From: Diadema setosum
Lineage: Eukaryota
NCBI RefSeq assembly: GCF_964275005.1
Contig: NC_092698.1
Coordinates: forward strand, 24,225,037-24,289,036
Direction of reading: 5' to 3'
Length of the DNA stretch: 64,000 nt
Made by a program: the position numbers and the translations under genes. Positions 37,101 through 38,132 of this stretch are shown piece by piece. Numbering within the stretch: position 1 is the first letter of the stretch; the number at the start of each line of letters is the position of its first letter. The notes under the pieces were generated by a model. That model was not told the origin of the DNA and made no database searches. It saw only the letters and a program-made list of their open reading frames with translations.

Positions 37101-37921
37101 CAGGATTCGAACCCACGACCTCCTGATCACCGGACAGGCGTCATCTCCACTAGACCACCGAGCTTTCGCCCGACAGCAAGTGTAGGTTCTAATCCTTATA
37201 GCATGCAGCGGGTACTGCTTTGTTATTCAAATTCATGAAATTCTTCCGTCGAGATGTTTTCATTGCAACTGATTGACAAATTGCCCTACATCGACGTAAA
37301 TAAGCACTGAATTGATCAGTGTTTTAGTAGTAGCCATGATAAAAAAATCATGGGCGTACATACTCGAGCAGGATTCGAACCCACGACCTCCTGATCACCG
37401 GACAGGCGTCATCTCCACTAGACCACCGAGCTTTCGCCCGACAGCAAGTGTAGGTTCTAATCCTTATAGCATGCAGCGGGTACTGCTTTGTTATTCAAAT
37501 TCATGAAATTCTTCCGTCGAGATGTTTTCATTGCAACTGATTGACAAATTGCCCTACATCGACGTAAATAAGCACTGAATTGATCAGTGTTTTAGTAGTA
37601 GCCATGATAAAAAAATCATGGGCGTACATACTCGAGCAGGATTCGAACCCACGACCTCCTGATCACCGGACAGGCGTCATCTCCACTAGACCACCGAGCT
37701 TTCGCCCGACAGCAAGTGTAGGTTCTAATCCTTATAGCATGCAGCGGGTACTGCTTTGTTATTCAAATTCATGAAATTCTTCCGTCGAGATGTTTTCATT
37801 GCAACTGATTGACAAATTGCCCTACATCGACGTAAATAAGCACTGAATTGATCAGTGTTTTAATAGTAGCCATGATAAAAAAATCATGGGCGTACATACT
37901 CGAGCAGGATTCGAACCCACG
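28106..37921 (-). repeat. Left arm of the palindromic satellite. About 36.6 head-to-tail copies of a 268-bp monomer, with the tRNA-like module in sense on the - strand.
   Basis: Exact 268-bp periodicity, seen as the identical 64-aa ORF starting every 268 bp from 28193. Variants: a 1-bp A-run deletion near 29565, a 7-bp duplication (gtgtaca) near 30205, an 8-A run near 37070, and a G>A change at 37862. Confidence 0.9.
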
Positions 37922-38132
37922 AATCCTGCTCGAGTATGTACGCCCATGATTTTTTTATCATGGCTACTACTAAAACACTGATCAATTCAGTGCTTATTTA
38001 CGTCGATGTAGGGCAATTTGTCAATCAGTTGCAATGAAAACATCTCGACGGAAGAATTTCATGAATTTGAATAACAAAGCAGTACCCGCTGCATGCTATA
38101 AGGATTAGAACCTACACTTGCTGTCGGGCGAA

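Follow-up and report, generated by a model that had tools for sequence, protein, structure and literature searches.

Work on double-strand breaks in yeast has shown experimentally that foldback priming at inverted microhomology by Pol delta is followed by unwinding and by capture through non-homologous end joining (NHEJ; PMC11724301). Human inverted duplications likewise arise by fold-back with short spacers (PMC3907307). In origin-dependent inverted-repeat amplification (ODIRA), the template is switched between the leading and the lagging strand where a short interrupted inverted repeat occurs (PMC10766183). Satellites reach new loci by microhomology-mediated repair or by reintegration of extrachromosomal circular DNA (eccDNA), as described for Rsp-like and 1.688 in Drosophila (PMC7403614), and the Cast satellites of Tribolium share this mode of spread (bioRxiv 10.1101/2023.04.24.538079). 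Here we analyse a 64,000-nt stretch of the genome of the sea urchin Diadema setosum (contig NC_092698.1, positions 24,225,037 to 24,289,036), hereafter the window, whose own positions are used throughout. At about 37.9 kb of the window, two head-to-head arrays of a 268-bp tRNA-like satellite adjoin. We read their meeting point, with a probability of about 0.5, as a genuine and evolutionarily young fold-back (snap-back) junction inside a 16.6-kb satellite insertion in a decayed BEL/Pao element.

The palindromic array as a whole occupies 28107-44734, a total of 16,628 bp. Tandem Repeats Finder (TRF) delimits a left array at 28107-37922 (period 268, 36.6 copies, 99% matches) and a right array at 37920-44734 (25.4 copies, 99% matches), the two overlapping at 37920-37922. 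ARAGORN detects tRNA-like segments on the minus strand as far as 37701 (37 calls) and on the plus strand from 38132 onward (25 calls). These oppositely oriented arrays bear out the palindrome centre near 37.9 kb proposed in the original prediction. Compared with the consensus unit, the minus-oriented units of the left arm are canonical up to 37922, ending ...GGATTCGAACCCACGA, and the plus-oriented units of the right arm are canonical from 37920, beginning CGAATCCTGCTCGAG... The arms do not simply abut at 37921/37922, as had been supposed, but share a 3-nt overlap, CGA (37920-37922, plus strand; TRF overlap and consensus-unit comparison), which forms an inverted microhomology at the turn. By TRF, tRNA calls (ARAGORN and Rfam) and unit typing, the left arm comprises 36.6 units at 28107-37919 with the tRNA-like sense on the minus strand and its outer end at unit phase ~150. 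The right arm, by TRF, tRNA calls and unit typing, comprises 25.4 units at 37920-44734 with that sense on the plus strand and its outer end at unit phase 113.

At the turn, TCG (37911-37913) is complementary to the CGA at 37920-37922, the two lying 6 nt apart with no filler DNA. The innermost pairs are gaTTCG / CGAAtc, with 37913:37920 as the last pair. Palindrome extension, DNA folding and tRNA numbering all leave the 6 nt AACCCA (37914-37919, plus strand) unpaired. The loop is smaller than the ~10 nt first suggested, for which GCAGGATT/AATCCTGC had been given as the first pairs; two further base pairs form inside these. The symmetry axis falls at 37916|37917, which is 4 nt off the axis of the TTCGAA hexamer (37910-37915). 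An earlier placement had put the turnaround at the T-loop, with its TTCGAA; the TCG to which the terminal CGA pairs does belong to this hexamer, which is nevertheless not the centre. In tRNA numbering, the right arm begins at C56 of a truncated T-loop and the left arm, in antisense, reaches position 47. The loop AACCCA is the antisense of positions 50-55 (5' T-stem plus T54-T55), so that the axis lies within the 5' T-stem.

The palindrome is perfect for 50 bp per side, where a single G/A difference at 37863 stops it. Its left half, 37864-37913, includes TTCGAA and is defined by palindrome extension together with the DNA fold. In a fold prediction for single-stranded DNA, the central 100 nt form a hairpin with a 47-bp stem and a 6-nt loop at -58.2 kcal/mol; shuffled controls reach -8.6 +/- 2.5 kcal/mol (z = -20). 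The central palindromic structure is far beyond chance. The exact sequence across the 37.9-kb junction is GATTCGAACCCACGAATC, and the junction 18-mer is single-copy within the window. The junction has no adapter remnant and lies away from any contig end.

The outer ends of the array place both arms in one molecule. The left flank, 26075-28106, is the downstream half of an interrupted BEL/Pao pol on the minus strand (Pfam PF05380 and PF17921; protein alignment). It carries the reverse transcriptase (RT) YMDD motif, a Peptidase_A17-family region, RNase H and an integrase zinc finger. Frameshifts and a 304-bp internal deletion (27981-27983) mark this half as degenerate. The right flank, 44735-46802, is the upstream half of the same element on the minus strand (gag DUF1759, Pfam PF03564, and protease region). 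An ENA contig, L002, holds an uninterrupted Pao copy at ~89% nucleotide identity, matching the downstream half at 5924-7829 (89.6%) and the upstream half at 3447-5505 (88.6%). The array is bordered by two exact plus-strand copies of the 12-bp sequence GACATCTCCTTG, at 28095-28106 and 44735-44746. This target-site duplication (TSD) becomes 13 bp if an ambiguous C (28094 / 44734) is included. In L002 the 12-bp sequence occurs singly, at 5494-5505, and the contig holds CAAGGAGATGTC once. On it the right flank stops at 5505 and the left flank begins at 5494, an overlap of exactly the 12 nt. When the array and one TSD copy are deleted in silico, the Pao pol frame is continuous, ...LEEYIGLETAGLE|PRRCRCTADFEE...YEVGLPW, and three database homologues (P0013, P0011 and P0006) align over the insertion site without a gap.

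Taken together, these results identify the array as an insertion of 16,628 bp whose TSD is genuine and whose empty site is verified. The possibility raised earlier that the two arms lie on different molecules is contradicted, as the 12-bp TSD and the empty site place both arms in one insertion. Units at the edges of the array are no less intact than those in its interior, whereas the host Pao element is decayed, with frameshifts and 89% identity to L002; compared with its host, the insertion is thus young. The units that adjoin the left flank are minus-oriented and those that adjoin the right flank are plus-oriented. Since the flanks meet opposite orientations, an odd number of orientation switches, at least one, is obligatory in the real molecule.

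This obligation bears directly on whether the junction could be a sequencing or assembly artefact, that is, a palindromic chimeric read or a mis-join in a near-identical array. Long-read foldback artefacts (PMC12870357) and palindromes from whole-genome amplification (bioRxiv 10.1101/173872) also show a palindrome with an abrupt turn, and foldback reads make up ~0.55-0.6% of Oxford Nanopore reads of genomic DNA (PMC12870357). Both published D. setosum assemblies combine PacBio HiFi reads with hifiasm, and the left arm contains ~6.7 kb of identical units, compared with a mean HiFi read of 8.4 kb in one of the assemblies. Unit counts in each arm and the single-T variants are uncertain to that extent. 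The locus differs from such artefacts in its collinear flanks with a TSD, its unequal arms and its HiFi platform, and HiFi genomic data are virtually free of foldback artefact reads (PMC12870357). A chimeric read cannot make matched flanks, whereas these are collinear halves of one Pao element that carry a TSD and abut opposite units. An artefact is very unlikely, because the TSD, the restored Pao frame and the empty site in L002 force an inversion junction.

The units themselves record how uniform the two arms are. Judged by its sequence, the repeat is best called tRNA-like. Rfam RF00005 scores 39.6 bits per unit (gathering threshold 29) with several non-standard pairs, and the anticodon loop, CCGGTGA, has C in place of U33, giving a degenerate cloverleaf. 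In every unit the B box (GGTTCGAATCC) is intact and a T7 run follows 13 nt past the tRNA-like 3' end; this T7 terminator for RNA polymerase III (Pol III) sits inside a CCATGAT-T6-ATCATGG hairpin. Identical sequence is found in 54 of the 63 units. The deviant ones have T8 in the T7 run (three full units and the right edge unit), T6 (two units), a 7-bp slippage duplication (one) or a single-nucleotide polymorphism (SNP; one), and there are two truncated edge units. Read from the centre outward, the unit types are AAAAABAAAAAAABAAAAAAAAAAC plus the edge unit in the right arm, and EAAB, 24 A, FAACAAAA plus the edge unit in the left. Mirror identity between the arms is ~99.9% over 6.8 kb, with 1 substitution and 5 single-T indels. 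This near-exclusively slippage-type variation would fit a single recent episode of error-prone repair synthesis, or of copying from one monomer in a rolling-circle-like manner, and would fit residual homopolymer consensus error in HiFi data equally well.

As a separate observation, all 62 'tRNA-Thr(GGT)' calls at 28240-44639 are satellite units and do not form a tRNA gene cluster. The published D. setosum annotation lists 5,384 tRNA models (PMC11066563), a count that may be inflated by arrays of this kind.

The geometry of the turn speaks to how it arose. The break phases of the two arms are 6-9 nt apart in the 268-nt unit, for which p is ~0.07 if the breaks were independent, and a 3-nt inverted partner 3-10 nt upstream exists for 15% of possible 3' ends in the unit. 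On these two figures, a hairpin or strand-switch origin is modestly favoured. The original prediction had placed the junction in the class made by fold-back, template switching or hairpin-capped breaks, as opposed to symmetric duplication. The phases 6-9 nt apart, the inverted microhomology and the clean turn agree with that assignment; the unmirrored arm variants, the 6-nt loop and the off-centre TTCGAA limit this support.

Two opposite arrays or fragments might instead have been joined by unrelated breakage and ligation, or by inversion, with neither a hairpin nor a strand switch. End joining with a 3-nt microhomology would give the same junction, and unmirrored variant patterns would suit arms of separate origin. 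The coincidence of break phases within 9 nt of 268 (p ~0.07) is then left to chance, and, with a single TSD-flanked insertion, arrays of independent origin would both have to enter at one site. Had a simple inversion taken place inside one array, two junctions would remain, and only one is present. We consider a joining of this sort decidedly unlikely.

A near-perfect 6.8-kb palindrome with a spacer of a few nucleotides is expected to be fragile. The present centre could accordingly be secondary: a palindrome that was once symmetric, or otherwise centred, would have extruded a hairpin or cruciform, been cleaved, and had its ends joined via the 3-nt microhomology. Such an overlap is within the 0-4 nt range typical of end joining, the SNP is only 54 nt from the axis, and Mre11 processes hairpins with loops up to ~8 nt (PMC11724301). 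However, the sequence demands no earlier centre, and a secondary break adds an extra event. The left side retains 9 nt more than the right at the turn, exactly as a one-step snap-back predicts. On a single allele the two readings look alike, and we regard a break at an older centre as unlikely.

Under the fold-back reading, a break or staggered nick would have opened the Pao pol at ...GACATCTCCTTG..., a step that rests on the observed 12-bp duplication and empty site. A DNA end with, or copying, satellite units of one orientation would then have stopped at ...GGATTCGAACCCACGA-3'. This stop lies inside the T-arm/B-box, and a polymerase would have entered it from the 3' side of the unit, head-on to Pol III transcription. 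Within the T-arm/B-box of such a unit the 3' end ...TTCGAACCCACGA-3' would have disengaged. Its terminal CGA may have annealed to the TCG that lies in TTCGAA 6 nt upstream, either within the same strand or, at a fork, in the opposite template strand, and synthesis would then have retraced the satellite for 25.4 units, making the right arm. The end of this product would have been joined to the far side of the break, sharing 0-1 nt with it; the junctions are observed, and an NHEJ-like pathway is the probable route. The turn would have arisen in the course of the repair that installed the array, or shortly afterwards. Such a scheme agrees with the hybrid model demonstrated in yeast (PMC11724301) and with the fold-back inverted duplications of humans (PMC3907307).

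Intramolecular self-priming would be possible only from the left arm to the right arm, because the reverse direction would leave 6 nt, TGGGTT, without a template. The shorter length of the right arm is consistent with this polarity. A polymerase nearing the centre in either arm moves head-on into a Pol III-type unit, and tRNA genes are replication-fork pause sites (10.1101/2020.01.29.925644; PMC5413955). Fork stalling at the B box or Pol III machinery as the cause of the turn is only a suggestion from a single junction.

Several points weigh against a fold-back origin. A 3-nt microhomology with a short loop is undiagnostic and so weak as evidence, since it is available at 15% of positions. At the outer junctions the homology is 0 nt on the left and 1 nt on the right, which is weak for a chain driven purely by microhomology, as in microhomology-mediated break-induced replication (MMBIR). 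Homeology between unit (CAGTTGCAATGAAAACATCTCGACGG) and target (CAGTGCAACGACATCTCCTTGG) was considered as an insertion guide and rejected: the alignment score is 10 against a shuffle mean of 9.8, 85 of 154 real flank windows equal it, and the likeness of unit and target site is at chance level. The unit variants are also not mirrored about the centre. T8 occurs at right positions 6 and 14 versus left 4, T6 at right 25 versus left 32, and the SNP is in the first left unit; of the mirror registers at offsets 0, 2, 10 and -7, none accounts for all of them. Direct copying of one arm from the other would thus need later slippage, unequal exchange or consensus errors, in a comparison that rests on few markers which are themselves possibly slippage or consensus errors. 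Finally, the evidence comes from one locus, other copies of the satellite having been sought in the window and in searchable collections that do not include the D. setosum genome.

Within that scope the satellite stands alone. There are no dispersed monomers of the 268-bp unit elsewhere in the 64-kb window. Exact look-ups of the 64-, 56- and 33-aa open reading frames (ORFs) of the unit in the searchable collections gave no match, nor did a homology search with the 64-aa ORF, and two metagenome scans returned zero. The sole viral match was rejected as an unrelated phage tRNA-Gln, which has only a T-arm/acceptor 21-mer in common with the unit. Other repeats in the window are of different kinds. 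Two short tandem arrays, at 16969-17331 (103 bp x 3.5, 90%) and 19681-20526 (158 bp x 5.4, 95%), are unrelated to the 268-bp satellite. A lone tRNA-like sequence on the plus strand at 22059-22132 (Rfam 46.4 bits; ARAGORN without an assignable anticodon) may be the head of a short interspersed nuclear element (SINE) or a pseudogene, unrelated to the satellite beyond a generic T-arm.

Set beside the fold-back events of yeast and human (PMC11724301, PMC3907307), the locus shares adjoining inverted arms, a short asymmetric spacer, inverted microhomology and the absence of filler, and its other end is likewise joined within 0-2 nt of homology. It differs in its substrate, a homogeneous 268-bp tRNA-like satellite in arms of 9.8 and 6.8 kb, and in being an interstitial TSD-flanked insertion, where the known cases are terminal chromosome duplications or local insertions of 5-150 bp. 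Here, moreover, the mechanism is inferred from one germline allele. ODIRA (PMC10766183) resembles the locus in a strand switch at a very short interrupted inverted repeat through a hairpin-type intermediate, but its products, inverted triplications or circular dimers, have two centres, in contrast to the one centre here. An ODIRA-type circular dimer was rejected on that count.

With the spread of Rsp-like/1.688 and Cast the array has in common that it is young and homogeneous, lies at a new euchromatic or transposable-element site, and has sharp junctions with little or no homology. Unlike those arrays, it switches orientation internally and has a clean 12-bp TSD with a verified empty site. 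The words 'inverted' and 'palindrom' did not appear in a text search of PMC7403614 and bioRxiv 10.1101/2023.04.24.538079.

The TSD raises the question of a mobile element, and the ends of the array are informative here. The left end reads CCTTG|TTCAAATTC and the right end ...CAATCAGTTGC|GACATC, with no poly(A) or other tail at either. At the left terminus, 37 nt (TTCAAATTC...TTTTCATT) have no counterpart on the right, and the outer unit phases are 150 and 113. A foldback-type DNA transposon would have terminal inverted repeats (TIRs) of tandem tRNA-like subrepeats meeting at the centre, and its transposase would have made the 12-bp TSD. The clean TSD, the verified empty site, the inverted arms of tandem repeats and the near absence of a middle domain are what such an element would show. 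TIRs with ~220-bp tandem repeats and links to satellites are documented for Tetris (PMC4079207), and the first such family was described in a sea urchin, according to the passage of PMC4079207 that cites Liebermann 1983. The array thus resembles FB, Tetris (PMC4079207), Galileo and the sea-urchin TU elements in its tandem-repeat arms, TSD, minimal middle domain and echinoid host. It departs from them in that its termini are not inverted copies of each other, given the 37 nt present on the left only and the phases of 150 versus 113, and in that no distinct terminal or flanking domain is seen. Its TSD of 12 bp exceeds the 7-10 bp of FB, Tetris and Galileo (PMC4079207), neither the block nor its vicinity contains a transposase ORF, and no second copy was found in the window or the searchable collections, the D. 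setosum genome not being among the latter. A transposon of this type is, on balance, quite improbable.

Retroposition of a long multimeric satellite transcript by a long interspersed nuclear element (LINE), with twin priming, was also weighed. Twin priming, which Ostertag and Kazazian are said to have described in 2001, reportedly gives TSD-flanked insertions with an inverted 5' part. The layout of TSD, inverted part, direct part and TSD agrees with this, a 12-bp TSD is within the variable LINE range, and the window contains an apparently intact LINE ORF with endonuclease and RT at 9103-12408. Neither end has a 3' tail, poly(A) or otherwise, and both this and the 16.6-kb insert size argue against retroposition. 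The T7 terminator in each unit makes long Pol III transcripts unlikely, the coincident break phases are not predicted, and the unit has no similarity to the LINE in the window. We hold this route to be barely credible. The LINE is of some interest in itself: its uninterrupted 1101-aa ORF on the minus strand (9103-12408) encodes an AP-endonuclease domain and RVT_1, and from this sequence it may be an active non-LTR (long terminal repeat) retrotransposon.

The Pao host has rearrangements of its own. Extension of the satellite palindrome into the flanks was examined and rejected, since the flanks are not inverted copies; their sole inverted match is a 98-nt stretch that corresponds to the start of the Pao LTR. 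This inverted repeat (94% identity; about 25997-26096 versus 46796-46893) bounds the Pao fragment and equals the first ~98 nt of the LTR (L002 1724-1821 / 9001-9099). The right LTR piece is in normal orientation; the left piece runs opposite to the Pao body, so that this element contains a second inverted junction. The Pao body breaks off in integrase (L002 7829) at an 8-nt common motif (GAAGATGT / ACATCTTC), and the inverted LTR piece terminates exactly at the LTR end (TGTCAT). Because it ends at the LTR terminus, an aberrant cDNA, from a strand switch or autointegration, is suggested in preference to a chromosomal rearrangement. The 304-bp deletion in the Pao pol corresponds to L002 5620-5923 and removes ~105 aa of RT; it has a 3-nt microhomology, ATG, and lies 125 bp from the satellite insertion site. 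In L002 itself, a 405-bp direct repeat (1-405 versus 1322-1724; 96% identity) lies directly upstream of the 5' LTR.

Two further features of the window lie beyond the array. A single 2305-aa ORF with C-terminal C2H2 zinc fingers occupies 57073-63990 on the minus strand. Identity is 100% to an uncharacterised D. setosum protein of 2543 aa and 74% to a protein of D. antillarum, and a 207-bp x 3.2 tandem repeat within it (60644-61299) gives internal protein repeats. At 52274-52357 there is a short degenerate interstitial telomere-like tract of TTAGGG/TTAGGT variants.

The junction and the insertion each belong to known kinds, namely fold-back junctions with a short spacer and microhomology, and satellite insertions. 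The locus is a real but ordinary rearrangement scar and reveals no new class of element and no new mechanism. What is particular is that a clean TSD, a fold-back centre inside the insertion and a verified empty site come together in one locus, and that the satellite is tRNA-like. A bolder interpretation is that the array is a snapshot of satellite 'transposition', in which a rolling-circle-copied extrachromosomal strand or a nascent strand would snap back at a B box bound by TFIIIC and be captured at a staggered break. Put equivalently, it would be an unrecognised echinoid foldback-type element with arms of tRNA-like genes. We think this quite doubtful. If true and recurrent, it would provide a sequence-level mechanism for satellite 'transposition' and might help explain the 5,384 tRNA models.

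With, unusually, all three junctions of the satellite insertion preserved and an empty site that can be verified, the locus is a well-documented natural case of fold-back in tandem DNA, and it shows that a tRNA-like satellite has moved to a new site in a sea-urchin genome. It also calls for caution in annotation, where satellite units can pose as a tRNA-Thr(GGT) cluster. A near-perfect palindrome of 6.8 kb whose spacer is 6 nt long should be fragile, and the structure of the locus may thus vary among individuals.

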